Source: Gemmatimonadota bacterium
GTDB taxonomy: Bacteria > Gemmatimonadota > Gemmatimonadetes > Gemmatimonadales > GWC2-71-9
DNA length: 64,000 bases
Direction of reading: 5' to 3'
Assembly (NCBI GenBank): GCA_036679645.1
Contig: JAZDCY010000013.1
Location: forward strand, 48,419-112,418
Shown here: piece after piece, positions 8,301 through 63,877 of the stretch
How positions within the stretch are numbered: the stretch's first letter is position 1
How the letters are laid out: each line of letters opens with the position of its first letter
The notes under the pieces: generated by a model
Seen by the model: only the letters and a program-made list of their open reading frames with translations
What the model was told of the DNA's origin: nothing
Database searches by the model: none
Translations under genes and position numbers: made by a program

Positions 8301-9539
8301 TCACGATCGCAGACCGACGGTTGCGTCAGGGGGCCGCGACCGGCCGAGCAATACCGCAACGGTCATGTCCGCCGTAACGTTCGCGGTCGTAATGAACATG
8401 TCGGGAATCAGGTCGAGGGCGATGAGCAGGCCGATCCCCTCGACCGGGAGGTTCAGGGCCACGTAAATTGGCGTCATGATGAACAGACCGCCACTTGGAA
8501 CGCCCGGCGAATAGAAGCTGAGCGCGGCAATCGCAGCGGTGATGGCGGCAATTTCCGCGGGACCGAGGTCGATGCCGTACAACCGTGCGATGAAGAACGT
8601 GCCCGTCATCCGGCCAATGGGCGAAGCGAACTTGAACAGCGAAGCGGCCACGGGGATCACGATCCCGCTCACGTGCGGGGCGAGCCGGAGATCGCGCTCC
8701 ACCCCATCCAACATCGCCGGGAGGGAGGCCAACGACGACCTGGTGCTGAAGGCCACCGCCTGCGCCGGAGCGCACGCGCGCGCGAACTGCCGCAGGGGAA
8801 CCCCGCCGCCCACCACCGCGATCGGATAGAGAGCCGCGAGCCCAAGCGAGACCAGACCACAGACGACCAGCAGGAAGACACCCAGGGCACCCACCAGTTC
8901 CGCGCCCGTGCGAGCCGCCAGCGGCAACACCAGGAAGAACACACCCACCGGTGCCACGAACAGAATCCATTCGACGATGACGATCATGGCCCGCGAAACG
9001 GCGTCGAAGAAACTCACCAACGGCCGTCGGTGCGCGGCATCCAGCCGCGTGACGGCTAGCGCCAGGGCGGACGTGAACACGATCAGCGGTAGCAAAGCGC
9101 CATCCGCCGCCGCTTTCACCGGGTTGGCGGGAATCAAGTTCACGATCCAGTCCCGGAAAGGTGGCAGTTCCACCTGCGCGCTGGGTGCCGCGTCCCGGAG
9201 GTGGGCGAACGCCTCCGCATCGAAATGCGCCAGCCCGAGCAGAGGCGGTGCAACCAGTGCGGTGATCAGGGCCCCACCGGCAACGAGCATCCCGAACAGC
9301 GCGAGTGCCCGGCCGCCGATACGCCCCCCCCGGCCGGCCGAACTGGAGGCGATCGCGGTGATGAGCAATGAGACGACGAGGGGAATCACCGTCATGCGGA
9401 TTGCATTGACCCACAGCGCACCGATGGGCTCGACCGTCGACACTACCCGGAGCAGCGTCGGGCTCTTCGCCCACGACACGGCCACGCCGGCAATGAGACC
9501 GGCGACCAACGCGGCGAGGACTCGGGACGTTTTCGACAT
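8301..9539 (-). CDS. Dicarboxylate/amino acid:cation symporter (DAACS, GltP-like)
   Basis: NLIPANP, AFSTRSSLASLP, GVPSG and DMFITTANVTAD motifs. Confidence 0.9.
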   Translation of the reverse strand: MSKTSRVLAALVAGLIAGVAVSWAKSPTLLRVVSTVEPIGALWVNAIRMTVIPLVVSLLITAIASSSAGRGGRIGGRALALFGMLVAGGALITALVAPPLLGLAHFDAEAFAHLRDAAPSAQVELPPFRDWIVNLIPANPVKAAADGALLPLIVFTSALALAVTRLDAAHRRPLVSFFDAVSRAMIVIVEWILFVAPVGVFFLVLPLAARTGAELVGALGVFLLVVCGLVSLGLAALYPIAVVGGGVPLRQFARACAPAQAVAFSTRSSLASLPAMLDGVERDLRLAPHVSGIVIPVAASLFKFASPIGRMTGTFFIARLYGIDLGPAEIAAITAAIAALSFYSPGVPSGGLFIMTPIYVALNLPVEGIGLLIALDLIPDMFITTANVTADMTVAVLLGRSRPPDATVGLRS

Positions 9540-9655
9540 GATGGGCGAGCGAGACCAAATGTGCGCTCAGTGTCCGCGGACCGTCAACGTTCCCCTGGCA
9601 GGGGCCCGTGCGCACCCGTACTCTTCCCTGGATACGCAGCCGAGGAGGTTGGAGT

Positions 9656-12481: not shown

Positions 12482-13788
12482 GCGCACGCACAATGATGTC
12501 AACCTGGACGCTGCTCGGTCTGCTCGTTGCCACGTCCGTACCGGCCAGAGCGCAGGATAACGAGACCTACGCCATCCAAGGTGGGACCGTGCATACCCTC
12601 GTGGGTGACCCAATCGAGAACGGTACGGTGATCGTCACCGCTGGCCGGATCACGGCTGTCGGACCCGACATACAAATCCCATCCGGCGCCACCGTGATCG
12701 ACGCGTCGGGCCGGCATGTTTATCCCGGGCTTTTCAACGCGTTCAGCCAGCTCGGCTTGCAGGAGATCAACGCCGTCGACGTCACCAACGACATGCGCGA
12801 GTTGGGGAGCTTCAACCCGCAACTCACGGCCGCTACCGCCATCCACCCGGCGAGCGAGCGGATTCCGGTCACGCGCGCAAACGGGATTACGCACGTCGTA
12901 TCCGCGCCCTCCACAGGCGCCGGTGGTATCGCGGGCCGTGCATCTGCCATTCACCTCGACGGCTGGACGATCGAAGACATGCTCATCGAGCCGGCCGTTG
13001 GCCTCGTGATCAACTGGCCCTCGATGCAGACTCGCCGGTTCAACCGTCAAACGTTCCGTGTCGAGAACCGTTCTTTCCGGGAGGTCCGGGAACAGTACGA
13101 GGAGGCGGTATCACAACTCGCCGATTGGCTCGAGGACGCCCGCGTCTACCGCCATGCGATGGAAGGTGGTGGAACTCCAGCGCGCGACCTGAAACTCGAG
13201 GCGTTGAGCACGGTCCTCACCGGAGCACTCCCGGTACTCGTCCTCGCCGACGAAGCGCGGGACATTCGTAACGCCGTGGCCTTCGCGGAGACAAACGGGC
13301 TGCGCATGATACTCGTGGGCGGCCGGGACGCCTGGAAAGAGACGGCGCTTCTCGTGGAGCACGACGTGCCCGTGCTCCTGCGGGCGACACAGAACCTGCC
13401 GCCTCAGCGAGACGACCCGTATTCTCGCGCGTTCAGCACACCGGCCTTGCTTTCGCAGGCGGGCGTCCGCTACGCGATCACCGGCTGGGCATCGTCGGGA
13501 CCCAACCCGCCCTCGCGGACGCTGCCGTACGAGGCTGCCAACGCAGTGAAGTTTGGTCTGTCCGCGGACGAAGCACTGAGAGCGATCACACGCTATCCTG
13601 CCGAGATTCTCGGACTCGGAGACGACCTCGGTACGATTCAGGATGGCAAGATCGGCAATCTCATTGTGACCGACGGAGACCCACTCCAGATCCGCACGCA
13701 GATCCTCCACGTGTTCGTCAACGGGCGACCTGTGGATCTGGACAACAAGCACCGAGCGCTCTACGAGCGCTACCGCGCAAGAGACTAG
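12478..13788 (+). CDS. Secreted amidohydrolase-fold protein (metal ligands degenerate)
   Basis: Signal peptide, VIDASGRHVYPG, GTIQDGKIGNLIV; no HxH; overlaps the upstream stop. Confidence 0.85.
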   Translation: MSARTMMSTWTLLGLLVATSVPARAQDNETYAIQGGTVHTLVGDPIENGTVIVTAGRITAVGPDIQIPSGATVIDASGRHVYPGLFNAFSQLGLQEINAVDVTNDMRELGSFNPQLTAATAIHPASERIPVTRANGITHVVSAPSTGAGGIAGRASAIHLDGWTIEDMLIEPAVGLVINWPSMQTRRFNRQTFRVENRSFREVREQYEEAVSQLADWLEDARVYRHAMEGGGTPARDLKLEALSTVLTGALPVLVLADEARDIRNAVAFAETNGLRMILVGGRDAWKETALLVEHDVPVLLRATQNLPPQRDDPYSRAFSTPALLSQAGVRYAITGWASSGPNPPSRTLPYEAANAVKFGLSADEALRAITRYPAEILGLGDDLGTIQDGKIGNLIVTDGDPLQIRTQILHVFVNGRPVDLDNKHRALYERYRARD

Positions 13789-13795
13789 TCGCTTC

Positions 13796-15700
13796 GTGGG
13801 GCGCTCAGTCCTCCTCTCGGCGCTCGCGCTTGGCGTGGTCGCATGCGGTGACGGCATCAACGACGCGCCCCCGCGAGAGGACGTCGAGGTTGCCATCGAC
13901 CTCAGCCAGATTCCCAACGTGACGACCCTCATCGTCGAGGTCGAGGCGGCGGATATTTCCGCGCCGCTCGTCTTCGACCTCACGGTGCGTAGCGGCACCG
14001 CGACGGGCACCATCGCCGTGCCCGTCGGACGCGACCGCACCATCACCGTCCGCGCCTTTGATGCCGACGGCCGCGAGACCCACCGCGGGAGCGCCACGGT
14101 CGACGTTATCGCCGGCACGACACCCCTCGTTACCATCCCGCTCACTCCTCTCGCCGGTGGGCCGATCGACTTCGACACCGTCACCATCGTTATCGTCCCA
14201 GAGGACGGCACGCTTCTCATCGGCGAATCGCTGCAACTTGGGGGAGCCGTGTTGACGATATCGGGCGACACGTTGTCCGACCCCCTCATCTGGTCTACGC
14301 CAGACTCTGCCGTGGCGGTCGTCGATACCGCAGGAATCGTGACCGGCGTGGGCCCGGGGGACGCGCGTATCTTCGCGACGTTCGGCGAGAAGACGAGTAC
14401 CGCGAACATCAGGGTCATGAACGCGGTCGCGACTGTCTCACCGACCGGCAACGCCCTCGTGTTCGGACTTCAGGTCGATGTGATACCTGAGGCGGCTATA
14501 GCAGTCGAGTACTGGACCGGAACCGAACCTCACCTCACCGTCGAGAGCCCCTCGGCAACCAGTCACCCACTGTTGCTCGCACGCCTGCTGTCGAGCACGA
14601 CATACGAGTACGCCGTGACCCTCACGGCGGGGACACGCGGTTCGCCAACGTTACTGACGGGGACGTTTACGACCGACACGCTGCCGGACGACCTCGAGGC
14701 GGTAAGGCTGACCTCGACCGGCGCATCGACCGCACAATTGGTGATGTTGGAACTGCGTATCCCCACGTTTCAGGGATTTGTCGCGGTCGATGCCATCGGC
14801 CGAGTGGTATGGTATCATCGAACCGGCGGCTCGTCTTGGGGCTGGACCAGGCGGGCGAACGGAAACTTCGTCTTTCTCGACACGCGCGATGGACTCACCG
14901 AGGTGACGCCGACCGGCGACGTCGTGGCGAACCTCACACGCGCCGGTGGGGAGGTGATCCATCACGACGTGATCGCCACGCCGGACAACACGCTCTACTT
15001 CATGACACGCCATTCGCAGGTCGCCGACGATGGCAAGACGTGGGTGGGGGAACGGATCTGGGAGTGGAACCCCGACTCCGGAGACCTCGAGATACGATGG
15101 AACGCGTTCGATTTTTTTTCGCCAGTGACCGATGCCGGGCCGTTGAGCAAACTCTCCGACTGGCTCCACGCCAACTCGCTGAACATCGGTGCATCGGGTA
15201 ACGTGCTCGTATCCAGCCCGTTTCTGAATCAAGTGATTGCACTCACGCCCGATTTCTCGACCATTGCATGGCGGCTGGGTGGGCCCAATGCGACATTCGT
15301 TCCCGATTCCCTCGCCACCTTTGCCTTTCAGCACTCGGCCTCCGAGGTAGCACCGGGACGGGTGCTCCTGTTCGACAATCGCGGCGGCCCCACCACCGCA
15401 GCGCCCTACTCACGCGCGCTCGAGTTGTCGCTCGGGCGCGGCATAGCCCAAGCGGGGTGGTCGTTTCGCGCACCGAACGACAACTACGCAGCGATCATCA
15501 GCTCGGCGCGCCGGATGGCCAACGGTCACACGATGGTCGCCTTTGGACCCGGCCCTGGCTTGCGCGGGTCGATAGGCCCAATCGAGGTCTACGAGGTCAT
15601 GCGTGATGGGACGATCCAGTGGCATCTGGTCGTGACCGGTCCCAACCACATGTACCGGGCGACGCCGTTCGATGATATTGCGGGAGAACGAGAGAAGTAG
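13796..15700 (+). CDS. Arylsulfotransferase (ASST) lipoprotein with Ig-like domains
   Basis: Lipobox VVAC, Big_2-like WSTPDSAVAVVD..G.VTG, ASST motifs HHD, DWLHANS, FQH and LLFDN. Confidence 0.8.
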   Translation: MGRSVLLSALALGVVACGDGINDAPPREDVEVAIDLSQIPNVTTLIVEVEAADISAPLVFDLTVRSGTATGTIAVPVGRDRTITVRAFDADGRETHRGSATVDVIAGTTPLVTIPLTPLAGGPIDFDTVTIVIVPEDGTLLIGESLQLGGAVLTISGDTLSDPLIWSTPDSAVAVVDTAGIVTGVGPGDARIFATFGEKTSTANIRVMNAVATVSPTGNALVFGLQVDVIPEAAIAVEYWTGTEPHLTVESPSATSHPLLLARLLSSTTYEYAVTLTAGTRGSPTLLTGTFTTDTLPDDLEAVRLTSTGASTAQLVMLELRIPTFQGFVAVDAIGRVVWYHRTGGSSWGWTRRANGNFVFLDTRDGLTEVTPTGDVVANLTRAGGEVIHHDVIATPDNTLYFMTRHSQVADDGKTWVGERIWEWNPDSGDLEIRWNAFDFFSPVTDAGPLSKLSDWLHANSLNIGASGNVLVSSPFLNQVIALTPDFSTIAWRLGGPNATFVPDSLATFAFQHSASEVAPGRVLLFDNRGGPTTAAPYSRALELSLGRGIAQAGWSFRAPNDNYAAIISSARRMANGHTMVAFGPGPGLRGSIGPIEVYEVMRDGTIQWHLVVTGPNHMYRATPFDDIAGEREK

Positions 15701-15885
15701 AGCGGATCGATTACTTGATGTGATTGGTGGTTTGGTGGACGGTGACCTCGCGCGCGCATGATGAGACCACGGTCGTCGCTAGGGTAGACTCGGTGCTCAC
15801 GAGGCGCCAGCGCGCTGGCGCCGACCGCGCGAGCGGACTAGCTTAGCGCGCCAACTCATCTCGTGGTACGCACCCACCCCGTTCG

Positions 15886-18800
15886 ATGGAGGTTGTCTCC
15901 GTGAGCCGCGCGCCCTGCCTCTGGAAGCCTTGGACCACGAGCGTGATTGGGGTCGCACTCCTGGTCGTCGCCGTGAGCGCTACCGCGCAGCAGATAGACA
16001 CGACCGCCTACGCCGGTCTGCAATACCGCTTCATAGGTCCGCCTGGCAATCGCGTGAGCGCGGTGGCGGGTGAACCGGGGAACGCAATGGTCGCGTATGT
16101 CGGCGCGGCGTCCGGAGGTGTGTTCAAGACCGACAATGGCGGCGTGAGCTGGCGGCCGGTCTTTGACGATCAGCCCGCCCAATCCATTGGCGCGTTGGCG
16201 GTATCGCTCTCGGAGCCGAACGTCGTGTGGGCCGGTACGGGTGAGACCTTCGTCATTCGATCGATGACGACCATTGGGAACGGCATCTACAGGTCGACCG
16301 ATGCCGGGCAGACATGGACGCACATGGGCCTCGAGCACAGCGGCCGGATCGGTCGCATCGTGATCCACCCCACCAACGCGGACATCGTCTTCGCCTGCGC
16401 GATGGGACACTCATTCGGGCCACAGGAGGAGCGCGGCATCTTCAAGACGACCGATGGCGGGACGACCTGGGAACGCGCGTTGTTCGTCGATGCGAACACG
16501 GGATGCGCCGACATCGCGATGGACCCCAACAATCCGCGCGTGCTCTTTGCCGGGATGTGGCAGCTCGAGATCAATACGTGGAACCTGAACAGCGGCGGTC
16601 CCGGCAGTGGCGTCTACGTCTCACGCGACGGCGGCGGGACGTGGGAGCGGTTGGCCGGGCACGGCCTGCCGGCAGCGGATCACCCGGTGGGGAAGATCGC
16701 GGTGGCGGTCGCTGCGAGTAACTCGAACCGCGTCTATGCGCTGATCGAGGACTCGGATCCCGCGTTTTACCGCTCAGACGACGGCGGTCGGACGTGGCGG
16801 CTCGTGAGCCACAATCACACCATGGCCGAGCGTGCGCCGTATTACGTACGCTTCGCCGTGGATCCGGATGACGAGAACCGGATCTACTTCGCATCCGTAC
16901 GATTCAGCCTGTCACGCGACGGCGGGAAGACACTTGCTGACGACCCGCCCCGGGGTGGAGGCGACAACCATGACCTATGGATCGATCCCACCAACGGTGA
17001 CCGGTTCATGGTGGGTCATGATGGCGGCGCGAGCATCACGCTCGACCACGGCCGGTCGTTCCAGCGCGTTGTCCTGCCGATTGCCCAGATGTACCATGCC
17101 CACCCCGACACCAAGATCCCGTACGACGTCTATGGCAACCGACAGGACAACGGGTCGTACGTGATGCCGAGCAACAGCCGCGCGCGTGGCATTCCGCCCG
17201 GGTTATGGCACTCGGTGGGTGGGTGCGAGAGCGGTTTCGGTTTGCCAGATACGGTCACCAACAACATCGTCTGGTCCGGCTGCTACGACGGCGGGCTTCA
17301 AGTCTACGATGCCACGACCGGACAGGCTCGCGACGTGCGCATATGGCCTGAGGGAGGATACGGCTGGCCGCCGGTGGACGTGCGGTACCGCTGGAATTGG
17401 ACGTTCCCCCTCGCGATCTCGCCGCACGACCACAACAAGGTGTACGCTGGCAGCCAGGTCGTGCACATGACCACCGACGGCGGGAGCAGCTGGACGGTGA
17501 TCAGTCCCGACCTCACGCGGAACGACACCACCCATCAACAGACCTCGGGCGGGGTCGGCGTCGATAACCTGATGACCTTCGACGGCGCCACGTTGCTCGC
17601 CATCGCAGAATCACCGCTGGAAGAGGGACTCCTCTGGGTAGGCAGTAACGATGGGTTGGTGCAACTTACGCGGGATGGCGGTGAGACGTGGACCAACGTC
17701 ACGTCGAACATCCGCCATCTTCCGGGGTGGGGGAAGATCAAGAACATCGAGCCGTCCCATTTCGATCCGGGCGCCGCGTACGTGGCCGTCGATTTCCACG
17801 AGATGGCCGACTTCGAGCCCTATATCTACAAGACGGAGGACTACGGCAGAAGCTGGCGCCGCATCGATGCCGGACTGCCACGGCATCCACTGGGTTTTGT
17901 GCACGTCGTGACGGAAGACCCCACACGACGCGGAATGCTGTATGCGGGGACCGAAAGCGATCTCTACTTCACGCTGGACGAGGGAGCACACTGGCAGCCG
18001 CTGCAGTTGAACCTGCCACACGCACCGGTGTCCTGGATCGCCGTGCAAGCGCATTTCCGCGATCTCGTCGTAAGCACGTACGGCCGCGGTGTATACATCC
18101 TGGACGATCTGACACCGCTTCGAGCATTGGCAACGGAGGTAATGGAGACACCAGTAACGTTCTTTACGCCGCGTGATGCCTACCGCTTCCGCCGGGTACA
18201 CGGTACCGCGAGCACAGGTGGATTCGTTCGCGGCCAGAATCCGCGTTACGGTGCTGACTTGAACTACTACTTGCAGGATTCGACGGTCACCGACAAGGTC
18301 GAGCTCACGGTGCTCGACGCAGCGGGTGATACGATCCGCACGTTCGATGGTACGACTAAGGCGGGGATCAACCGCGTGTGGTGGGACCTGCGCTACGAGC
18401 CGGCACGAAGAGCCGTGCTGCGGACACGACCCCCGGACGCCTCCTGGGTGCATCTCGACGATGATGGTACGCGACGACTCGTGAGTTGGGACCTGGACCT
18501 CTCCCAACGGGGGCCGTTAGCACCTCCCGGCACCTACACCGTACTACTCGACGTTGAGGACACGACATTCAGCCAGCCACTCACGGTGCTCAAGGATCCG
18601 CACTCCACCGGTACCTTGGACGACATAGATGCCCAGATAATCTTGGCCCTCGAGCTACGCGACGATCTCGACACGACAGTCGCAATGATCAACCGGACGG
18701 AGTGGGTACGGAAACAACTGGGTGACCTGGTCACGCAACTCGAGAGTGATCCCGCCCGGGCGGGCGACGAGACAGACTCCTTGGTGGAAGCGGCGCACGC

Positions 18801-19110
18801 ATTGGACGAGGCCGTGATCGCGGTGCAAGGGCAACTGTTCGACGTACATCTTACCGGTGCCAGGGAAGACTCCTTCCGCAACCCAATGCGGCTATTCGGA
18901 CACCTCTCGGCGTTGCTGAGTGATGTTGCGGAAAGCAGCGCAGACTTCGCGCCGACGTCACAACAGCGCGAAGTACATGACGTGCTGCGAGCGCGGCTGA
19001 TGGACGCCGCGGCGGCGTACACACGTTTGCTTCAACGGGACGTTGCGGCGTTCAAGGAGCGACTCCGGGTAGCAGATCTGGCGGACGTCATCTCCATGCG
19101 CTACCGGTGA
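15886..19110 (+). CDS. VPS10/sortilin-like BNR-repeat beta-propeller (glycosyl hydrolase-like)
   Basis: Many S/TxDGGxTW Asp-box repeats; RFIGP..NRV N-terminus; helical C-terminus. Confidence 0.85.
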   Translation: MEVVSVSRAPCLWKPWTTSVIGVALLVVAVSATAQQIDTTAYAGLQYRFIGPPGNRVSAVAGEPGNAMVAYVGAASGGVFKTDNGGVSWRPVFDDQPAQSIGALAVSLSEPNVVWAGTGETFVIRSMTTIGNGIYRSTDAGQTWTHMGLEHSGRIGRIVIHPTNADIVFACAMGHSFGPQEERGIFKTTDGGTTWERALFVDANTGCADIAMDPNNPRVLFAGMWQLEINTWNLNSGGPGSGVYVSRDGGGTWERLAGHGLPAADHPVGKIAVAVAASNSNRVYALIEDSDPAFYRSDDGGRTWRLVSHNHTMAERAPYYVRFAVDPDDENRIYFASVRFSLSRDGGKTLADDPPRGGGDNHDLWIDPTNGDRFMVGHDGGASITLDHGRSFQRVVLPIAQMYHAHPDTKIPYDVYGNRQDNGSYVMPSNSRARGIPPGLWHSVGGCESGFGLPDTVTNNIVWSGCYDGGLQVYDATTGQARDVRIWPEGGYGWPPVDVRYRWNWTFPLAISPHDHNKVYAGSQVVHMTTDGGSSWTVISPDLTRNDTTHQQTSGGVGVDNLMTFDGATLLAIAESPLEEGLLWVGSNDGLVQLTRDGGETWTNVTSNIRHLPGWGKIKNIEPSHFDPGAAYVAVDFHEMADFEPYIYKTEDYGRSWRRIDAGLPRHPLGFVHVVTEDPTRRGMLYAGTESDLYFTLDEGAHWQPLQLNLPHAPVSWIAVQAHFRDLVVSTYGRGVYILDDLTPLRALATEVMETPVTFFTPRDAYRFRRVHGTASTGGFVRGQNPRYGADLNYYLQDSTVTDKVELTVLDAAGDTIRTFDGTTKAGINRVWWDLRYEPARRAVLRTRPPDASWVHLDDDGTRRLVSWDLDLSQRGPLAPPGTYTVLLDVEDTTFSQPLTVLKDPHSTGTLDDIDAQIILALELRDDLDTTVAMINRTEWVRKQLGDLVTQLESDPARAGDETDSLVEAAHALDEAVIAVQGQLFDVHLTGAREDSFRNPMRLFGHLSALLSDVAESSADFAPTSQQREVHDVLRARLMDAAAAYTRLLQRDVAAFKERLRVADLADVISMRYR

Positions 19111-19112
19111 CG

Positions 19113-20804
19113 CTATTGGTTGGCTGACTCGCAGAAGGTGGGTGGCTCGTATGTCCAGCCGCGACGTAGCCGACGCTCCTCACGGCGCATCTTGAACCGC
19201 ACGTACCGTCCGGCGACGGAGCTGGCAATTCTCGCGCGGAGACCGAATTCCCGCTGAAGCTCCTTCAAGATGCCGCCAATCTTCTGTTTGAGCTGTGGAT
19301 CGTGACGAAACCGCTTCTTCGCCGCCCAGAGCAGTGCGGCCATGCCCCCGGGCAGATCACGGGCCTCCCACCGAATCCGACTCCTGATGCGCAAGTCGGG
19401 ATGAAACTTGTAGCGCTTCCATCCTTGCAGCATTGTCCGCGCCACCCGCACGATGCTTGGACCGTTGATCGCGAAGTCCTTGTTGAAGGCTTTCAGCAGG
19501 AAGGATTCCTCCTCGCCGGGTTCGAAGTGAGGATGTTTGTGCGCGAATCGATGCTGTCCGTGTCGATCGGCATCTGGACACTCGTCCCGATCGAGCAACG
19601 TGCCGTTACGCATGTGCTCCTCGTAGAGCGGCGTCCCCGCAACCGGCGTGTACAGCATGAACTGATGGAACTCCGTATCGTGACTCACCGCGTAGTCGAT
19701 CACGGCGTCCATGTTTTCCGGCGTGTGATCCTCGAGACCGATGATCGTCGATCCCAACACGCGAACGCCGTGCGACTGAAGCGTGCGTACCAGCTCGTGC
19801 GTGTCTGTGCCGCTGAGCTTGCGGTAGGAGGCGTGTTCCCCCTCGAGTCCCAACCAGACCCACGAGACGCCCAAGGCAACGAGCTGCTCGATCGTGTACT
19901 GGCGCAGAACATTGGCAGAACTGAACACGTACAGCGCCCAGGGTTTGTCGTGCTCGACCATCAGTTCCAGCAACCGGAGCGCTCGTTTCTTGTGTAAGAG
20001 GAAGTTCTCGTCCATCACGAAGAACGACTTGACCTGGAGCGCGTCCGCCAGCTCGCACATCACCTCGAACAGCTCGTCTCCCGTCTCGTAGAAGTGGACG
20101 AACTTGCCCTTCCCGCCAAACATCGCCGAGGTTGCACAGAAGTTGCAGCCTATGGGACACCCAACCGACGGAATCAGCGTGGCCGCCGTGTCGCCGGGCT
20201 TCCCCGACAGCGTGATGCCCATCACCCGCCCCCCGATCCCCGACCGGATGTGCGGGTGGTGTATGGGCCGGTGCTCGTCCTCACCGAGGAAACGACGCAT
20301 CCAGCGCACCCCCTCCCCCGTCACGATATGGTCCGCATCGATCTCGTCGGCGAGGTTGGGAATATTCGCCACGTGGCCGCCCACCACGATCGTGGCCTCC
20401 GGAAGGTGCTCGCGCACCAGCTCGCACATCTTCCGTACCTTACCCACGTTCGGCTGGATCGCCGAGATCCCCACGATGTCGTACCGCTTGGTGCTGATCT
20501 CGTGGACGAACCGATCCAGCGAAGGGAAGTCGAGCAACGTGGACGGGGCCTCGAGGTTGGCCTGAATCAGCATCAAGCCCCAGGACCGGTGAAACATCCG
20601 CAGCGAGAACGCGCCCTGCACGCGCGAAACCTGATTGTGATACAACTCCATCGGGTTCACGGCCCTGCTGCCGTATGCATCGTCCTGGGCGTACGGGCCA
20701 AACACGCTGGTCAGGAGTACACGGGGACGCCCGTTGCTGATGTCTGAGGCTGACAAACTGTGTGCGTGCCTTTCTTCTTCGGCGCATCTTCCGGTAACAG
20801 GCAC
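19113..20804 (-). CDS. B12-binding radical SAM protein
   Basis: B12-binding region (DIVGIS, IVVGGH, GEG), CPIGCNFC, MDENF and TPVAGTPL motifs. Confidence 0.88.
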   Translation of the reverse strand: MPVTGRCAEEERHAHSLSASDISNGRPRVLLTSVFGPYAQDDAYGSRAVNPMELYHNQVSRVQGAFSLRMFHRSWGLMLIQANLEAPSTLLDFPSLDRFVHEISTKRYDIVGISAIQPNVGKVRKMCELVREHLPEATIVVGGHVANIPNLADEIDADHIVTGEGVRWMRRFLGEDEHRPIHHPHIRSGIGGRVMGITLSGKPGDTAATLIPSVGCPIGCNFCATSAMFGGKGKFVHFYETGDELFEVMCELADALQVKSFFVMDENFLLHKKRALRLLELMVEHDKPWALYVFSSANVLRQYTIEQLVALGVSWVWLGLEGEHASYRKLSGTDTHELVRTLQSHGVRVLGSTIIGLEDHTPENMDAVIDYAVSHDTEFHQFMLYTPVAGTPLYEEHMRNGTLLDRDECPDADRHGQHRFAHKHPHFEPGEEESFLLKAFNKDFAINGPSIVRVARTMLQGWKRYKFHPDLRIRSRIRWEARDLPGGMAALLWAAKKRFRHDPQLKQKIGGILKELQREFGLRARIASSVAGRYVRFKMRREERRLRRGWTYEPPTFCESANQ

Positions 20805-45811: not shown

Positions 45812-46432
45812 CTAAGGCGCCCAACGCCGGACCTCCTCCTCGAGTCGAGCTCGGATGCCCGGCCAGCCGACCTTGTGGAGCATCCGCGGCATGGGCTCCT
45901 CCTCGGCATCCTCGAAGTAGACCAGGCTCCGGAGTAAATGGATCGCGTTGAACGAGACATTCGCATAGCGCCGTCGTACAATCTCCATCAATCCCGGGAA
46001 ATCACCGCCGACCTCCAGATAGGCGTACAGATCGACGAAATCCTTGCGGCTTCCCCGCCCGGCAATGGCGATGATCTTCATCGCCGCGATGTCCCGAGGA
46101 TCCGCCAGTCGCAGGCCGCGATACTGAAGAGGCGGATAAAGAAACGGTGTCTCTGAGCAAAGATAGCTCAGGTGAATCCCGTTCAGCCGGACATGCAGCG
46201 TGTTCTCGTTCTGGTATTGGATCTCGAGTGCACCGAGAGGCGTGAGTGATCTCCGCAACTCGCCGACGTCGAACCCGTCATCGTTGAAGAAACCGAGATC
46301 AATGGAGACTCGGTGACCGAGCTGCAGGGCCAATCCGGTTCCCCCCGCGAGAGTCCAGGGCTCGAGGAGTCCCGCCCCGTCGAGCTGGCGCACGAGCTTC
46401 CAGACCTCCTTGGGCAGGACGCGCGGATTCAC
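45812..46432 (-). CDS. AbiEii/AbiGii-family nucleotidyltransferase toxin (second catalytic Asp replaced by Gly)
   Basis: LAGGTGLAL.LGHR.S.DLGFF and MK...RG.RKDF.DLY; GTGA overlap with the antitoxin. Confidence 0.85.
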   Translation of the reverse strand: MNPRVLPKEVWKLVRQLDGAGLLEPWTLAGGTGLALQLGHRVSIDLGFFNDDGFDVGELRRSLTPLGALEIQYQNENTLHVRLNGIHLSYLCSETPFLYPPLQYRGLRLADPRDIAAMKIIAIAGRGSRKDFVDLYAYLEVGGDFPGLMEIVRRRYANVSFNAIHLLRSLVYFEDAEEEPMPRMLHKVGWPGIRARLEEEVRRWAP

Positions 46433-46929
46433 GGACGCGCCCGGGTCGGACCCAGGATCACGTGCCACAGCCGGCGGGTGCGGGCATCCATGGAACGATG
46501 GGCTGCCGCATCACGGACCGCATCGTCGCCGAAATGCATTCGTACCCGTCGCACGGCCAGCCAATCCCCGAATCGCAGAACCCGGCGCAGGACCCATTGC
46601 GGATTCTCGTCCAGATGTTCGGGCTTCAGATCGACGTCCCAGAAGAGGGGCCGCAGCTTCCGGACGAGTTGAGCCGGCGATGCATGGTCAGCGGAGCCGT
46701 CGGGGCGAAGAGGATCTAGGCTGATGTCCAGCCGGGCATCGAGCGCGGCGGCAAGACGGCGCAGCGTGCGCAGCTCGAATCGCCCCCAGCCACTCTCGTA
46801 GCGGTGTATTGCCGAGACACTGCTGCCGATCTTATCAGCCAACTCCTTGAGGGATAGTCCCTTACGCTGGCGCAAACTCCTGAGACGTGGACCCAGCAGG
46901 GGACCGGTGCTCCCTGAAATAGTTCTCAT
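46429..46929 (-). CDS. Xre-HTH plus DUF6922-like antitoxin
   Basis: LRQRKGLSLKELA..IG.S.S.I.RYESG; LFWDVD...VLRRVLRFGDW. Confidence 0.82.
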   Translation of the reverse strand: MRTISGSTGPLLGPRLRSLRQRKGLSLKELADKIGSSVSAIHRYESGWGRFELRTLRRLAAALDARLDISLDPLRPDGSADHASPAQLVRKLRPLFWDVDLKPEHLDENPQWVLRRVLRFGDWLAVRRVRMHFGDDAVRDAAAHRSMDARTRRLWHVILGPTRARP

Positions 46930-51093: not shown

Positions 51094-51132
51094 GGTGTTC
51101 TCCGGTTTCGTGTCACGGAGGACGATGTCATG
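51094..51132 (-). pseudogene. Kinase catalytic-loop remnant
   Basis: Reads HDIVLRDTKPENT, compared with VIHRDIKPENI. Confidence 0.55.
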
Positions 51133-51212
51133 TGGAGGGGAGTGCGATGCCCCATGGACGAGGACGTGATACCGAGGCTTGTCTTTGGACCGATATTTAC
51201 GTTGCAGTTAGT

Positions 51213-51226
51213 TGCCAATTATGGCA
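51213..51226 (+). promoter_or_regulatory. Palindromic operator upstream of abiEi
   Basis: TGCCA-ATTA-TGGCA ending 9 nt before the ATG. Confidence 0.55.
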
Positions 51227-51235
51227 TTTTCTGCC

Positions 51236-51877
51236 ATGAAATTTGCGAAACTCCTGGACACAGTCGGAGACCTGCCGCTGTTCCGTGGCAGCCTCCTCCT
51301 GGCGGGCGACGTGGACCCAGCGGACGTGAGGCGGCAACTCGCCCGGTGGAAGGCGTCCGGCAAGGTACTCCAGCTGCGCCGCAACCTTTACGTCCTCGCC
51401 CCCCCGTGGCGACGCGTCCAGCCTCATCCGTTCTTGATTGCCAACGAACTCCAGCGTCCCTCCTATGTGAGCCTCCAGTCCGCCTTGGCCCACTACGGTA
51501 TGATTCCGGAAGCCGTTCCGGTGACCACGTCCGTCACCACAGGCCGTCCGTTCCGATGCGAGACGCCGCTCGGCCAATACATCTATCGTCACATCGCTCC
51601 GCCCGCCTTCTTCGGATACGGCCAAGTGCCCGTGCTACGCGACCAGCATGCTCTCGTCGCGGACGCCGCCAAGGCACTGCTCGATCTGGTGTATCTGACA
51701 CCGGGCGGGGAATCCCCGGAGCACCTGAGATCGCTCCGCCTGGAAGATCTCAGTACCATCCCGCGGCAATCGTTGTGCGACCACGCCCGCCGATGGGGCA
51801 AGCCCAAGGTCAGCAGGGCGATTGCACGCATCGTGGGGATGCAGGAAGCGGTTACGGCAGAGGACGTTCGCTCGTGA
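51236..51877 (+). CDS. abiEi: Type IV TA antitoxin (AbiEi-like)
   Basis: wHTH QLARW..SGKVLQLRRNLY; PSYVSLQSALAHYGMIPE; KALLD.VY. Confidence 0.85.
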   Translation: MKFAKLLDTVGDLPLFRGSLLLAGDVDPADVRRQLARWKASGKVLQLRRNLYVLAPPWRRVQPHPFLIANELQRPSYVSLQSALAHYGMIPEAVPVTTSVTTGRPFRCETPLGQYIYRHIAPPAFFGYGQVPVLRDQHALVADAAKALLDLVYLTPGGESPEHLRSLRLEDLSTIPRQSLCDHARRWGKPKVSRAIARIVGMQEAVTAEDVRS

Positions 51878-52695
51878 GGGAGCAACTGCTCGACATCGTG
51901 CGGCGTACCGAGAACCCCGTACTCGGTCGGAACCTGGCGCGCGAATACCTCCAGGCGCGGCTCCTGCTGGCCCTCCAGGAAGCAGGGGCCATGATTCCTC
52001 TGGCGTTCCAGGGCGGCACGGCCTTGCGGTTCCTTTTTGGCCTGCCGCGTTTCTCGGAGGATTTGGATTTCGCCCTCCAGCGATTCCACCGCGGCGGTTT
52101 CGACTTCGCGAGGACGGGTGAACGCGTGACCGCGCAACTCAGGAGCGAAGGTTACGAACTCGTGACGAGACGCAAGACCGGGCACGTGATCGAGAGCCTC
52201 ATGATCGGCTTCACCGGACTGTTGCACGAGGCGGGGCTCTCACCTCGCGCTTCGCAGCGGATGAGCATTCGGATCGAGGTCGATACGAAACCGCCGGCGG
52301 GGGCGCATCTCGCAACCAGCATCGTGCGTCGCCACGCGCTGCTCAACGTGCAGCACCACGACCGTGCCTCTCTACTCGCCGGGAAATTGCACGCGATTCT
52401 CCAGCGCGCCTGGGCCAAGGGTCGTGACCTCTTCGACCTGTTCTGGTACCTGAGCGATGCGAGGTGGCCGGGTCCCAACCTCCTTTTGCTGAACAACGCG
52501 CTGCGGCAAACGGGGTGGGAAGGGCCTTCGCTGGATGAGTCGACGTGGAGATCGGTGATTCGCGACCGGGTCGCATCGGTGGACTGGAAGACTGCGGAGC
52601 GAGACGTGGCGCCGTTCCTCGAGCCGGATCCCGCCGTCCGCCTCTTCGGGAAGCAGCGTCTGCTGGAACTGCTGGACGCTTCGCGTGCGACGTAG
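51874..52695 (+). CDS. abiEii: Type IV TA nucleotidyltransferase toxin (AbiEii-like)
   Basis: FQGGTALR...RFSEDLDF and K..A..R...RDLFDL; GTGA overlap with the antitoxin. Confidence 0.88.
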   Translation: MREQLLDIVRRTENPVLGRNLAREYLQARLLLALQEAGAMIPLAFQGGTALRFLFGLPRFSEDLDFALQRFHRGGFDFARTGERVTAQLRSEGYELVTRRKTGHVIESLMIGFTGLLHEAGLSPRASQRMSIRIEVDTKPPAGAHLATSIVRRHALLNVQHHDRASLLAGKLHAILQRAWAKGRDLFDLFWYLSDARWPGPNLLLLNNALRQTGWEGPSLDESTWRSVIRDRVASVDWKTAERDVAPFLEPDPAVRLFGKQRLLELLDASRAT

Positions 52696-58386: not shown

Positions 58387-58406
58387 GGTCGGGACGGCCG
58401 GATTCG
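58387..58406 (-). repeat. tRNA-Pro 3'-end copy (att-like, from the T-loop)
   Basis: cgaatccggccgtcccgac is identical to 63833-63851. Confidence 0.85.
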
Positions 58407-58418
58407 TGACCTCGCCCA

Positions 58419-59816
58419 CTACCGGTTTTCCAGCCCCCGAATCATCTGTACAACGTCTCTGGCGAGTTCGTTGGGTATCGGGATGGTCAGGTGGTACTGC
58501 GTGATTCTCCATTCGTCGACGACGAGGCGCAGGACTCCCGTCCCGCGGGTCTCACCGTAGTTCTCGTTATCCAGAATCTCATCGAACCACGCGACCGAGC
58601 CACTGGGATCGAAGTCGATGTTCCGGCCACCGTCGCGTAGCGCGTAGGTCCAACCCTGTCCGCGCTCGAAGGACGGGTGGGCGTAGGAACGGAATTCCTC
58701 CACTGTCCAACGTTCCGACGCGTCGGTGCCAAAGAACACACCTTCGGGAGCGAACAACGCGAAATAAGATTCCTCGTTGGCAATGGACGCGTTGTGGTGC
58801 AGCGCGTCGAGCACGCTTGAGACGCCGGACGTCGCCTCGGCGCGGTCGAACGCCACCGATTCCCGGTCGCCGGCGTTGGTGCGCGCCACACCGGTTGCCG
58901 TCGCCAGTTCTTCCAGAATGCCGTGCTCGACCAGGAAATCCATGATGGTCGCATACGCACGCATCGACTGCTCAGCGTTGAAGCCACCGTGACCACCACC
59001 GGGGATCGTCACGAGACGGTTCGCCACCCCCGCCGCGTCGAGCGCCTCCTGCAAGCGCGTAGCGTGCGAATAGGGAACGACGCCATCCGCGTCGCCGTGA
59101 ATCGTGATCGTGGGAGGCAATCCGCTCCGGATGTAGGTGAGCGGGGATACCCGCCGGGCGATGGCGTCCCGATCGGGCATGCTGCTGAGCCAAGCCACCG
59201 CATAGCTCTTGGTGTTGGGCCCGTCGATCAGATCGGCCACGTCGGTAATACCGTACCAATTAATGATCGCCGCCACGCTCACGTCGTCGAGCCCGACGCA
59301 CTGCCGATCGAGCCCCGCAGACGCTGGTAGCATCCCGGTCGTCAGCGAAAGGTGCCCACCCGCCGAATGACCGGTCACGACGATGCGACTAGTATCGATA
59401 CCATAGTCGTCGGCGTGCCGTCGTACCCACCGTAACGCGCACCGCGTGTCCTCCACCGCCGCGGGCGCGAGAGAGACGCGACCCAGCCGGTATTGTACGT
59501 TTACAGCAACAAAACCGTTCGCCAGGTAGGGCAGAAGGGCGAAGGCCGACCGCTCCTTGCTTCCCCCAACCCACCCACCGCCGTGGATGTAGATCACCGT
59601 CGGTTGCGGACCTTGCACGCCGCGCGGCTGGTAGATGTCGAGTGTCAGCTGGAAGTTGTTGGCGGTCAGGTAGGGAATATTGGAATGGATACGGTATCCC
59701 CGCCCGAGATCGACGGCCCATTGCGTGCGCTCATCCAATTGAGCGCCGGCAGGGGCTGCAACGACTACAAGCGCGATAGTAACGAGTGCCACCATAGCAT
59801 CAAAACGACGTGTCAT
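58419..59816 (-). CDS. Secreted alpha/beta hydrolase (BD-FAE-like esterase) fused to a SnoaL/NTF2 domain
   Basis: HGGGW, GHSAGG, HGDAD and GGGHG; C-terminal GTDASERW..VAWFDE..RGTGVL. Confidence 0.88.
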   Translation of the reverse strand: MTRRFDAMVALVTIALVVVAAPAGAQLDERTQWAVDLGRGYRIHSNIPYLTANNFQLTLDIYQPRGVQGPQPTVIYIHGGGWVGGSKERSAFALLPYLANGFVAVNVQYRLGRVSLAPAAVEDTRCALRWVRRHADDYGIDTSRIVVTGHSAGGHLSLTTGMLPASAGLDRQCVGLDDVSVAAIINWYGITDVADLIDGPNTKSYAVAWLSSMPDRDAIARRVSPLTYIRSGLPPTITIHGDADGVVPYSHATRLQEALDAAGVANRLVTIPGGGHGGFNAEQSMRAYATIMDFLVEHGILEELATATGVARTNAGDRESVAFDRAEATSGVSSVLDALHHNASIANEESYFALFAPEGVFFGTDASERWTVEEFRSYAHPSFERGQGWTYALRDGGRNIDFDPSGSVAWFDEILDNENYGETRGTGVLRLVVDEWRITQYHLTIPIPNELARDVVQMIRGLENR

Positions 59817-59856: not shown

Positions 59857-59931
59857 GCCTTCGCCGAGGCGGCGTTCAATCTGGTAACGGTTAGCTAGGG
59901 CGGTTGAGCGCCTGGCAGTAACGTCAGCCAC
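59857..59931 (-). pseudogene. Kinase N-terminal remnant (25 codons)
   Basis: VADVTARRSTALANRYQIERRLGEG followed by unrelated sequence. Confidence 0.85.
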
Positions 59932-59935
59932 GGTC

Positions 59936-60092
59936 GGCAAAGATAGGGTTGGATTCGCGACACGGCGAGAAACGCGATTTGGAATCTGGCACACTATTGG
60001 CACACAACGACACGGAATGGGCAGACCAAACGGGCCGCCTATTTCGTAACTACGTCTGCTTGTTCAGCTTGCCCGAGGACATCCGAATTCGA
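59936..60092 (-). repeat. Module copy: degenerate tRNA end, hairpin, TGGCACAC repeats, kinase promoter (copy 4)
   Basis: Colinear with 63576-63732; tggcacactattggcacac at 59987-60005; ggacatccgaattcga at 60077-60092 (13/16 match to the tRNA end). Confidence 0.8.
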
Positions 60093-60219
60093 TGACTCCG
60101 GCATTGTTGTGGTGACGGTCCCCTCTGCGTACGGCCGCATAGTGGGTGGGTCATGACCCCACGGCTATCCCACAGGAGCAATACCGAGCGCCCGGCTCGC
60201 CGAGCCGTGACCGTAACGT

Positions 60220-60248
60220 TTGACGTTAATAACGCTATGCGTTATTAT
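60220..60248 (+). promoter_or_regulatory. higBA sigma70 promoter with operator
   Basis: TTGACG-N17-TATTAT ending 5 nt before the GTG; palindrome TAATAACGC-tat-GCGTTATTA. Confidence 0.85.
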
Positions 60249-60253
60249 TCTTC

Positions 60254-60535
60254 GTGATCAAGAGCTTCCGGGACAGGCTCACCCAGAAGGTCTTTGAGCG
60301 CCAGCGCGTGCGCCATCTACCGCGTGGCGTGCATCGCGCAGCCTTGCGGAAGCTCGTGATCCTCGATGCCGCGGAAGAACTCGGTGACCTGCGGATCCCA
60401 CCGGGGAACCGGCTCGAGAAGCTTTCGGGCAAGCGGGCGGGACAGTACAGCATCCGGATCAACGAGCAGTGGCGGATCTGTTTCCGGTGGGACCGCGGGG
60501 ACGCCTACGACGTGGAGATCGTCGACTATCACTAG
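60254..60535 (+). CDS. higB: HigB (RelE-family) toxin
   Basis: MIKSF, PPGNRLEKL.G and YSIRIN.QWRICF.W..VEIVDYH. Confidence 0.93.
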   Translation: MIKSFRDRLTQKVFERQRVRHLPRGVHRAALRKLVILDAAEELGDLRIPPGNRLEKLSGKRAGQYSIRINEQWRICFRWDRGDAYDVEIVDYH

Positions 60536-60544
60536 GAGCTATTG

Positions 60545-60844
60545 ATGGCGCCCAAGAAACAGTCGCCCGTGCACCCTGGGGAGGTGCTTCTTGCCGAGTT
60601 TCTCGAGCCAATGGAACTCAGCCAGTATCGTGTTGCCAAAGACATTAGCGTACCGGCACGGCGCATTAATGAGATTGTCCACGGAAGCCGAACGATAACG
60701 GCGGATACGGCGCTGCGCTTGGCGCGCTACTTCGGGACATCGGAGCGTTTCTGGCTCAATCTGCAGACCCGCTACGATCTCGAGGTCGAGAAGGATCGCC
60801 TGGGTCGCCGGCTAGAAGAAGAGGTGTTGCGCCGCGCGGTCTAG
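60545..60844 (+). CDS. higA: HigA antitoxin
   Basis: HPGEVL, RINEIV.G.R.ITADTALRL and FWLNLQ..YD. Confidence 0.93.
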   Translation: MAPKKQSPVHPGEVLLAEFLEPMELSQYRVAKDISVPARRINEIVHGSRTITADTALRLARYFGTSERFWLNLQTRYDLEVEKDRLGRRLEEEVLRRAV

Positions 60845-60852
60845 TGGGTCAG

Positions 60853-60939
60853 TTCGGATCATGGGCCGCGACCCATCAGGCGAGCGGCGGACGGCGGGGT
60901 GGTGGTGAGTGGGGTGGCCGTCAACCGGCGACCCCCTGA
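60853..60939 (-). repeat. Degenerate copy of the tRNA fragment and downstream spacer
   Basis: 60923-60939 is identical to 63852-63868 (17 bp); 60853-60889 matches 63729-63765 at 33/37. Confidence 0.85.
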
Positions 60940-61020
60940 TGCGATGCCGGAGCGCAGCGACGGCGAGCACGAGCGCCATCGCCACATGATGGCGATGTGC
61001 GGTCAACCCCATGGTCGCCC

Positions 61021-63571
61021 CTACTTCCCCACCTTCGCCTTCAACTCCTCGAAGAAGTTCTCGACCACGATGAGCTGCAGGTCGTCGGCTGCGTCCCCTC
61101 CCAGAACGCGGATCATCACGAAGCGCTGCCCGTCCGGCGTGACGTCGTACATCTGATGATAGATGTCGGCCCGGTACGCCTGTGCGTCGAACAGGGTTCG
61201 TTGTGCACCCGTCACAAACGCTTCGCCTGGCAGCACCTCCACGGCCACGAGCCGTTGCGCACCATCCCGGTAGAACAATTCGCGGCCACTGTGCGCCCAC
61301 ACTGGCTCCGAGCCACCGCTGGTCGATACCAACCACCGACCATCTGCGACGTTGGGAAAGGGCCGCACGTAGACTTCTGACCCACCTGTTTCGTTGGATA
61401 CGTACGCCAGCCAGCGGCCGTCGGGAGAGACTGCGGGTGCAGTCTCCTGAAATTCGGTGGCAACTAGGGGAACCATCGCGCTGTCGCCAGCCGTGCGAAT
61501 AGCATAAAGGTCCGCGGAAGGTCCCCCGCCCTACCGATTCACGAGCCACGAACCGTCGCGCGTGAAGCGGGCCTCGTGGACTGCGCGTTCTACGTCTAGC
61601 ACCAGCTCAGCATCCGCGGTGCCGTCGGCACGACGCTGGGCGATATCGCGGTCCCCCTGCCGGTTGCTCACGAAGGCTACCGACCGGCCATCGGGGGTCC
61701 AGTCCGGCCTGTAATTCAGCACGCCCTGGAACGTCAACTTCGACGCAGTTCCCCTCGCGAGCTGTCTGACCCATAGCTGTTCCTCCCCGCCGGCGGCGAT
61801 GGAGACGGCGAGCTGGGTCCCATCACCCGAAAGCGCGAGGCTTGTAACAGCATCTGTCCAGTCGGCTGCCACCGCCTCGGCCCTCCCGTCTCGATCCACC
61901 CAGACCGGCTCGCCACCCACTGAGGTAGAACCGCCAACTGTGTACGCCAGCGTCCCGTTACGCGACACTGCCAGATCCGGAACACTGAGCGTCCTCAGGG
62001 CGATCCCATCGATCAGAGCCGTGGGATCGCCCGTGATCGCCATAGCATCCTGATCGAACGGCACCGCCATCAGCGTTCCGTCGGCCGTCACGTACAGCAG
62101 ATGTCCAGAGGCCGCGTACCTTGCGTAGTTGCCACGAAGGAGCACCTCGTGGGTGCCAGTTGCCGTGTTGGCGATCGCGATATTCGACTCGCTGGAGCTC
62201 GTTCCGGGCCCGACGGTGAACACCACCCCTTTTCCGTTGGGCAACGCGTCGGGGAAGAGGTGATCGATCTCTCCGCTCGCCGAGTCAAGCACCGTAAACC
62301 ACTCGGGCGCGCCCCCTGCGGCCCGAACCCTTACGAGTGCGGTCGCACCATCGCCGTCAGTATAGATGAAGCCATCCGGTCCCCAGGATCCGCCCGCAGC
62401 GCCCACCAGCGAGTCGGTCACCCTAACCGGAGGTCCGCCCCGTAACGGAGGCGATCTTGAGACCGTCGCCTAAGAATCCCACGTGGTCCCCGTCGGGAGA
62501 AAAGAACGGTGCGAACGCTCCCTCCGTACCTGCGAGCGCCGTCGCGTCCAGCTGATCGCGCGGCCGAACCGAGAGCTGGAACTGACCGCCGTCACCTTGA
62601 GTGACGTAGACCAACTGCGACCCATCCGGCGACAGCGCGATTCTCGCGAAGAACCCGGCGATCACCTGGCCCTCCGGCAGCAACACGCTGTATCGCGACA
62701 CGGGCTTGGGCGGTGCCGGTCGCGTCATCGACCATGCCGCGACGCCCGTCATCACGACCAGTCCCGCAGCGAAACCGATCGTCCAACGGTTCCACTGAGA
62801 TGCGGCCGGCGGCGCAACCACCTGCGCGGCTTGCGTCGTCGGAAGCGTGAACGCTGGATTGGTCAGCGCCTCGGCGAACTTTGCCGCACTCTCGAACCGA
62901 TCTGCTGCAAGCCGCTCCAACGACTTCGCCGTGGCCGCCGCAACATGGGGTGGCACCGACTTGCGCAACTCTGTGACCGGGCGTGCGTCATCGGTCACGA
63001 TTTTCATGATGATCGCCTGCGCCGACCCACCGATGTGCGGCGGCTCGCCCGTCAGCATTTCGTACAGCACACTACCCAACGAGTAGATGTCCGAACGGTT
63101 GGTCAGGTCCTTCTCCGCCGTCGCCTGTTCGGGCGACATGTAGTGCGGGGTGCCGAGTGAGAGACCAGTCTCGGTCATCCGCCCACCCGCTGCCGCACTC
63201 ACCGCCAAGGCGATACCGAAGTCCGCCACCATCGGACGACCATCGTGGAGGAGAAGGTTCTCGGGCTTGATATCACGGTGGATCACATTGTTCCGATGCG
63301 CGTAGTCGAGCGCGTCCGCGATGGCGGTGGTAATGCTGACTGCCTCGTCGATGGAGAGTTGCGTTTCGCGGTTCAGCTTGTCCCTGAGCGTCTCGCCTTC
63401 GATGTACGGCATGACGTAGTACAGGAACCCGTCGGCCTCGCCCGAATCAAACAGGGGCAGGATGTGGGGGTGTTGGAGATTGGCGGTGGTCTTGATCTCC
63501 TGCACGAGGCGGCGCTCGATCTTGTATCGGTCGGCAAGGGCGGTCGAGAGCCTGGCAGTCACGTCAGTCAT
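61021..63571 (-). pseudogene. Receptor-like Ser/Thr kinase with PD40 propellers, pseudogene
   Basis: In-frame deletion of the Gly loop and VAVK (IERRL|VQEI); extra G at 62438-62441; in-frame TAG at 61531-61533. Confidence 0.9.
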
Positions 63572-63575
63572 GGTC

Positions 63576-63732
63576 GGCAAACATAGGCTGCGATTCGCGA
63601 CACGGCGAGAACGCCATTTGAATTTGGCACACTATTGGCACACAAGGACAAGAAATGAGCGGCCACTCACAGACCGCTCATTTCTAAGTAGTTGTTGCCT
63701 TTCAGGTTACGTAGTCGGGACGGCCGGATTCG
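63576..63732 (-). repeat. Module copy: tRNA-Pro 3' end, 12-bp hairpin, TGGCACAC repeats, kinase promoter (copy 5)
   Basis: tRNA end 63713-63732; stem agaaatgagcgg/ccgctcatttct 63651-63685; direct repeats 63625-63643. Confidence 0.85.
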
Positions 63733-63789
63733 GATCATGAGCCGCGAGCCGCCAGGCGAGCGGCGTTGACGAAAGCCGGGCGGCCCAGC

Positions 63790-63831
63790 CACAGACAAGA
63801 AAAGCGGGCACCGCCCGCTTTCTTGTCTGTG
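63790..63831 (-). terminator. Long hairpin terminator directly after the tRNA fragment
   Basis: cacagacaagaaa(a)gcgggc-acc-gcccgctttcttgtctgtg. Confidence 0.8.
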
Positions 63832-63832
63832 A

Positions 63833-63877
63833 GTCGGGACGGCCGGATTCGAACCGGCGACCCCCTGAACCCCATTC
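63833..63877 (-). tRNA. 3' half of tRNA-Pro(GGG), partial; probable att site
   Basis: gaATGGGGTtcagg gggtc gccggTTCGAATccggc cgtcccgA covers anticodon loop to acceptor; no D-arm or 5' acceptor strand upstream. Confidence 0.85.

Follow-up and report, generated by a model that had tools for sequence, protein, structure and literature searches.

A higBA toxin–antitoxin (TA) pair splits a worn copy of a tRNA-Pro attachment module at the T-loop, in a tandem att array at one end of contig C6 of genome G000. The window – the whole 64,000-nt stretch of DNA analysed here, which forms that end of the contig – also holds an empty copy of the same module, so the locus lets gene docking be tested with two alleles, one filled and one empty, separated by 3 kb. 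We tentatively favour a one-off capture of a higBA fragment at a recurrent GGTT/CR breakpoint in the T-loop (the slash marks the bond) in the ancestor of a narrow clade. TA pairs in decayed tRNA-island arrays are ordinary, and the exact bond is the unusual part: in many relatives, hairpin inserts without genes have entered at the same GGTT/CR position, and no enzyme is known for the process. Should it also be able to dock genes, it would be a new gene-capture route at tRNA sites; should the segment be a deletion residue, it would only be a neat case of a TA pair outlasting its island.

No whole tRNA gene lies within the window, and the tRNA fragments in it are pieces of tRNA-Pro(GGG), whose parent gene is on contig C7 with a tyrosine integrase gene adjoining it (PF00589, E 2e-14). 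Because the start of C7 carries a 91% copy of the reference (empty) module, C6 and C7 are probably neighbours in the genome. Together, C7 and the window hold seven tRNA-Pro pieces, all on the minus strand, and these form a tandem att array, with the following pieces and associated features (window coordinates unless C7 is given):

C7 1206-1252 and 1086-1105, minus strand: tRNA-Pro pieces.
63832-63877, minus strand: tRNA-Pro 3′ half from the anticodon loop, the attR-type fragment of the reference copy (93% to the C7 tRNA-Pro(GGG) gene).
63713-63732, minus strand: tRNA-Pro 3′ end of the empty copy, displaced but intact.
63625-63643, no strand: arm-type repeat of the empty copy.
60923-60938, minus strand: tRNA-Pro piece of copy 2, from the 3′ strand of the anticodon stem to the T-loop GGTT (exact match to 63852-63867).
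60077-60092, minus strand: degenerate displaced tRNA-Pro(GGG) 3′ end of copy 2, starting at the T-loop (12/15 to 63718-63732, colinear; flank aligns to G086).
59987-60005, no strand: direct-repeat motif TGGCACACTATTGGCACAC, likely integrase arm-type sites (identical at 63625-63643; same position in relatives).
59865-59935, minus strand: residual start of a Ser/Thr kinase gene, with homology to 63505-63575.
58388-58406, minus strand: additional tRNA-Pro 3′ end, likewise from the T-loop, closing a 1.67-kb hydrolase unit (19/19).

The position of the TGGCACACTATTGGCACAC motif makes it a likely arm-type site. The array is rich in decayed units, including a split kinase, kinase-start remnants and further TA pairs. 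TA-type loci in or near it include two AbiEii-type nucleotidyltransferase genes and a hipBA pair (window 45812-46929 and 51130-52695; L339 on C7, 7392-8955). A gene encoding a Ser/Thr kinase and PD40 propeller is broken into three ORFs (61021-63580), and 62423-63580 appears to have lost internal sequence close to its start as well. The kinase starts at 45680, 49596, 53311, 58330 and 59865 share one upstream motif, and given these recurring starts att-linked units may spread Ser/Thr kinases.

Several other features of the array and its surroundings are of note. The lone tRNA-Pro end at 58388-58421 begins at the T-loop, and 12 nt separate it from the stop codon of the hydrolase gene. Both that gene and higA have TAG TGGG past the coding end and GTCA near the T-loop, a similarity that may be chance; the related X2 allele (see below) does not have those letters after higA. 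On C7 (L339, 3950-4430), the tRNA-Pro 5′ part is present in three tandem copies upstream of the tRNA-Pro gene, each with a hairpin insert of ~100 nt in the D-loop region that starts after GGT and ends near GCGT. G000 also has five long-arm tRNA-like genes (C7 211519, C59 8760, C47 754, C11 12621 and C32 56781), which ARAGORN calls Ala or Val and which have Leu-like bodies and odd anticodon loops. In a same-genus tRNA-Pro array (L260 of G002, 8900-20000) one tRNA copy carries two inserts, and integrase stumps occur together with numerous TA genes or gene fragments, which from their translations probably include AbiE-like and HTH_37 genes.

The initial annotation described 59936-60939 as a colinear degenerate copy of 63576-63868. 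This second copy is real, and its homology extends further than claimed, with 85% identity over 158 nt on the arm side (63505-63660 versus 59865-60022) and 33/37 in the spacer (63729-63765 versus 60853-60889). In an unconstrained global alignment the left flank was spread across the insert, leaving the left junction unplaced. A single-breakpoint scan puts the junction anywhere within TTCG (reference 63729-63732), with a 765-bp insert and a score of 129; the insert is bounded by TTCG at 60088-60091 and at 60853-60856, at the T-loop. An alternative break at reference 63708-63711, 20 nt away, scores 128 versus 129, and the window alone would thus favour the T-loop break narrowly.

The left junction is settled by comparison with other genomes. 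Matches as good as that of 60077-60091 to the tRNA end (12/15) occur at five places in the window, and a 12/15 match within 6 nt of a given position has a frequency of 0.0005; the anchored extension at 60077 is reached by 0.1% of 2000 random places. Window 59981-60092 aligns with an intact junction of arm and tRNA end in G086 (72% over 118 columns, E 5e-12), and a tRNA-like G is present at both 60081 and 60082 in X1 and X2; from these we conclude that 60077-60092 is a worn tRNA-Pro end. The split of spacer from tRNA end by some 760 bp carrying higBA, the position at the T-loop and the polarity are all borne out, and the tRNA match is better than chance. The TTCGAA predicted at the empty site is absent, however; the site reads GATCCGAAT (tRNA strand, GATC-CGAAT), and the repeat in the window is only 4 nt long. 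The higB-side junction reads T/CGAAT, the bond at which hairpin inserts enter, and the higA-side junction adjoins a hairpin insert.

The insert has the following organization:

60092-60856, no strand: the 765 bp inserted by comparison with the empty copy, counting one repeat (breakpoint scan; present in X1 record 2 and X2 record 10).
60088-60091, plus strand: TTCG direct repeat, higB side (sequence; breakpoint scan).
60853-60856, plus strand: TTCG direct repeat, higA side (sequence; breakpoint scan; same junction in X2 record 10).
60093-60211, no strand: 118-bp leader (no significant fold; matches no hairpin-insert model).
60220-60248, plus strand: sigma-70-type promoter TTGACG-17-TATTAT (same layout upstream of most higB relatives).
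60254-60535, plus strand: higB toxin gene, 93 aa, open frame (PF05015 78.4 bits, cut-off 27; PDB 6f8s_B, E 4e-25).
60545-60844, plus strand: higA antitoxin gene, 99 aa, open frame (TIGR02607 111.3 bits, cut-off 47.7; HTH_3).

As proposed in the initial annotation, higB and higA are the only genes in the insert, and a search of 60092-60856 for a recombinase or integrase gene, an arm repeat or an attC gave nothing. The HigB-like toxin gene lies upstream of the HigA antitoxin gene and both score above curated cut-offs; the pair looks intact, and neutralization of the toxin by the antitoxin is predicted. A 9-bp palindrome (60227-60247) overlaps the promoter and is likely the HigA operator, giving, on sequence features, the promoter with putative operator of an autoregulated HigBA operon. 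The higA stop lies 8 nt from the right TTCG repeat. The leader folds no better than its shuffles (z -0.6 and -1.0), and was rejected as a decayed hairpin insert after failing HMM tests with both the T-loop and the anticodon models. In 400 other class genomes it gave just two weak matches of 26-29 nt, and the search otherwise matched the promoter ten times and the arm with the tRNA end once. The end of the leader resembles the ends of anticodon inserts over 9 nt (background 0.0024), a likeness spotted after the fact and a lead only.

The spacer of the module belongs to a family of gene-free hairpin inserts located in tRNA-Pro ends at GGTT/CRAAT across the GTDB family. The relevant features of the two copies are:

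63733-63831, minus strand: reference spacer, with a terminator-like hairpin, an inverted worn tRNA end and a hairpin-insert end (fold z -4.87; 91% copy on C7; copies in relatives).
60857-60922, minus strand: 66-nt T-loop hairpin insert of copy 2, an apparent fusion of two insert types (33/37 to the reference spacer; 5′ part a weak model match).
60939-61004, minus strand: 66-nt anticodon-loop hairpin insert (42 bits with a model built from relatives, compared with 5.3 for the best shuffle).
61005-61012, minus strand: anticodon-loop remnant ATGGGGTT, the start of the copy-2 att fragment.

A broken-T-loop pattern is present in 26 of 401 family genomes, with none in the reversed control. These include 30 loci, 22 of which have a gene-free insert of 16-158 nt followed by the tRNA end, two have no insert, and six (including that in the window) have no tRNA end in view. 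All but one of the 22 distinct T-loop inserts (21/22) start with GA. A second type of T-loop insert, exemplified by 63733-63831, repeats the tRNA end and adds a terminator-like hairpin and a worn copy in inverted orientation. Inserts in the anticodon loop lie at GGTT/CAGG and have ends G...T; there are 15 distinct examples, from 18 rows less three tandem duplications. Among 40 segments, 23 end in GCGT before a C that belongs to the tRNA. From the insert models and the spacer match, copy 2 consists of a tRNA fragment, an anticodon insert and a fused T-loop insert, followed by higBA. The anticodon insert was missing from the initial annotation. At 60890-60922, a T-loop hairpin insert, of which this would be the 5′ half, is weakly preferred over a degenerate tRNA end (3.5 bits, reached by 0/300 shuffles).

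These inserts are not repeats of wide distribution in the genome: a genome-wide nhmmer search gave no match with the T-loop model and one with the anticodon model, and nothing in Rfam came close to a gathering score. In a search for an enzyme, four Y1 transposase and five GIY-YIG matches were found in the genome, none of them in the array, and five of their contexts on inspection held no such hairpin inserts. The specific spacer pattern gave no stretch in metagenome contigs, and the junction and module patterns gave none in viral contigs. A loose spacer pattern gave at least 120 stretches in GTDB, mainly chance or an alphaproteobacterial repeat, with at least 5 of 121 matches flagged as T-loop-like by script. 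That repeat is free-standing, with three hairpins in ~85 nt and no tRNA, and occurs in many Alphaproteobacteria (L052, L059, L060, L071, L072 and others); it has in common with the T-loop spacer the CCGCTCGC...GCTCGCGGC hairpin and the TCRAA that follows. The spacer-end pattern matches 48 of 401 family genomes, near the reversed-control level, and at the genuine module ends inspected among them a tRNA end comes next, never genes.

Filled and empty alleles are both present elsewhere. In run X9 (share 0.99, source-like), a single contig spans 59220-61054 with zero differences, and among the joints listed none skips or joins across the insert and none represents an empty or circular form, in contig data from which rare forms drop out. 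The filled allele is found in two other studies. X1 record 2 covers 63516-63666 and then 60032-60860 (78 differences, 12 gaps), and X2 record 10 covers 63728-63849, seven other letters and 60213-60844, plus 60034-60156. In X2, therefore, a reference-type spacer runs directly to higBA, joined to higA over the seven letters; the higA-side repeat there is apparently ~9-10 nt as read from alignment tables, with at least 5 nt directly aligned. X2 record 8 also contains the 58389-58907 junction at similar depth, so that the junction at the 58388-58406 tRNA-Pro end recurs as well. Because junctions and neighbourhood are shared, including this neighbouring junction, we regard the X1, X2 and window arrays as orthologous, and the filled alleles look like one event inherited by descent in a narrow clade. 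In X3, just a 100-nt higB piece is among the pieces listed. Empty alleles with the module, a whole tRNA end and the arm repeat are present in G197, G094, G086 and G015, and the filled state is thus derived. Of the two forms that the initial annotation led us to look for, empty alleles were recovered in family genomes, and the segment itself was found here and in two close relatives, at no second target.

The suggestion of repeatable, site-specific insertion of a cassette did not hold. All three filled alleles have one junction and one neighbourhood, with no second target, arm sites or recombinase, and with only one event specificity of insertion cannot be shown; there is no sign so far of mobility as a cassette, and a site-specific mobile cassette is unproven. 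Relatives of higBA occur in 43 of 400 other family genomes, and none of the matches listed extends into the module. Neither the 29 family loci inspected nor the 80 metagenome loci listed (62-74% HigB identity) have the leader, module or a tRNA-Pro end at the junction, giving 0/109 at a comparable site; a few such loci are near whole tRNA genes or attC-like sites. An integron-like array (L004, G001 C16, 1400-1650) contains, between the starts of two attC-like sites, the 3′ third of a gene closely related to higA. A plasmid blastn search returned 21 records, none covering 80% of the query, and the 15 listed match the higBA part only. No other gene-bearing insert at the GGTT/CR bond was found in relatives. 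Two candidates were rejected: a tRNA end near higBA in L285 is a 3-mismatch match inside an ORF, and L313, where a gene comes after the module, lacks a second tRNA end within its contig of 4.5 kb. The literature searched, largely open journals and main texts, held no account of TA-only T-loop cassettes or of these hairpin inserts.

Capture by the process that makes hairpin inserts is favoured because the higB-side junction lies on the insert bond and the higA side adjoins an insert. The T-loop bond would be the cut or strand-switch point of that process, and a higBA-bearing fragment with 118 bp of donor flank would have been captured at one such break with a 4-10-bp duplication, after which both tRNA-end copies decayed. 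HigB/HigA addiction probably helps to retain an otherwise decaying stretch, and the segment would be a passenger able to leave only when an integrase in trans excises neighbours along with it. Since tRNA ends cut at 10-16 nt are common, simple deletion may account for the higA-side junction. Against capture, the enzyme search was blank in the array and the leader matches neither insert model. A broader proposal, which we consider unlikely, is that the GGTT/CR hairpin inserts are footprints of a new insertion system able to carry genes; its gene-loaded cassettes would include the higBA segment and perhaps the 1.67-kb hydrolase unit that ends at the T-loop at 58406, and the spent att sites behind tRNA-Pro would act as an integron-like docking array that has no attC.

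The segment could instead be the residue of a larger tyrosine-integrase island, from which deletions took the integrase, the arms and most of both att copies while the TA pair survived by addiction. This is a possible though less probable origin, and the decayed units of the array, with its other TA pairs, are consistent with it, as are the many TA fragments between att pieces in the same-genus G002 array. Erosion from both sides is evident in relatives: the tRNA end behind a module is shortened to 10-16 nt at 8 of 45 junctions, in three genomes (L278, L381 and L395) nothing but a module stump precedes a lone tRNA end, and the ~9-10-nt repeat of X2, a table reading, resembles the truncated tRNA ends in length. 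Accretion and decay to CIMEs (cis-mobilizable elements) have been described (PMC5704250). Deletion on the higB side would nevertheless have had to stop exactly on the T-loop bond, as also at 58406; the leader bears no trace of an anticodon-type att fragment or module, and no longer version of the segment was found in 400 family and 400 class genomes. An integron gene cassette, misinserted or captured and then stripped of its attC, is a very improbable source. By eye, several higBA relatives (L003, L190, L231 and L304) have an attC-like site at their end, the higA stop falling within TAAC, and the window higA ends at the homologous position, but no attC follows it and neither junction has GTTRRRY, the integron core site; such an origin could account for the donor and not for the site. 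The initial annotation's cassette, read as a minimal mobile TA unit that has a short core in the T-loop, was integrated there site-specifically through an integrase acting in trans, and can still be excised, is doubtful. It has in its favour a direct repeat at each end, a self-contained operon, the integrase beside the C7 tRNA-Pro gene, and T-loop crossover sites being a known class (PMC4383910). Yet the repeat is just 4 nt here, internal arm sites are absent, the site is a single orthologous one, and no joint across the insert is among those listed for X9. Moreover, comparison with relatives shows that the anticodon loop, rather than the T-loop, is where att fragments of the resident integrase elements start, and the resident integrase type is therefore a poor candidate for a T-loop crossover.

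The operon resembles type II HigBA operons (PF05015, TIGR02607, PDB 6f8s) in its toxin-first order, RelE-like toxin, XRE antitoxin and palindrome over the promoter; the proteins are ordinary and the location alone is unusual. It is like integron TA cassettes in being a compact higBA with its own promoter, with relatives beside attC-like sites, but its junctions have neither attC nor integron core, higA being followed by 8 nt, TTCG and a hairpin insert. Concentration of TA pairs in variable regions has been reported (PMC3119797). The hairpin inserts are similar to REP and CGTC-tagged palindromic repeats (PMC3733652) in being short imperfect hairpins, many ending in GCGT before CR, with no linked transposase; they differ in occupying fixed bonds in tRNA-Pro copies rather than occurring at high copy between genes, and the accessible part of PMC3733652 does not mention tRNA-loop targeting for such repeats. 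Crossover subsites in tRNA genes fall into classes (PMC4383910), and the segment is like the T-loop or J-crossover tyrosine-integrase islands of Islander in its T-loop boundary and in a displaced 3′ fragment downstream in the same orientation. Unlike those islands, it has no integrase within the unit and restores no tRNA end, only 4 nt following the upstream junction, and its target is a non-functional fragment. The segment also resembles CIMEs and tandem accretion at tRNA 3′ ends (PMC5704250), in which units are stacked at one tRNA target with att fragments between them, most have no integrase, and TA genes are cargo; the higBA unit is in tandem with other elements at one target, given the probable adjacency of C6 and C7, and lacks an integrase. 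It departs from the CIMEs described there in having no arm sites or either arm motif within the insert, just a 4-10-nt repeat on one side (4 nt here, apparently ~9-10 nt by table reading in X2), and a junction at the T-loop where the att fragments of the array start from the anticodon loop, with hairpin inserts interrupting the att copies. The higBA segment works like a CIME-type passenger in an accretion array rather than like an integrase island or an integron cassette.
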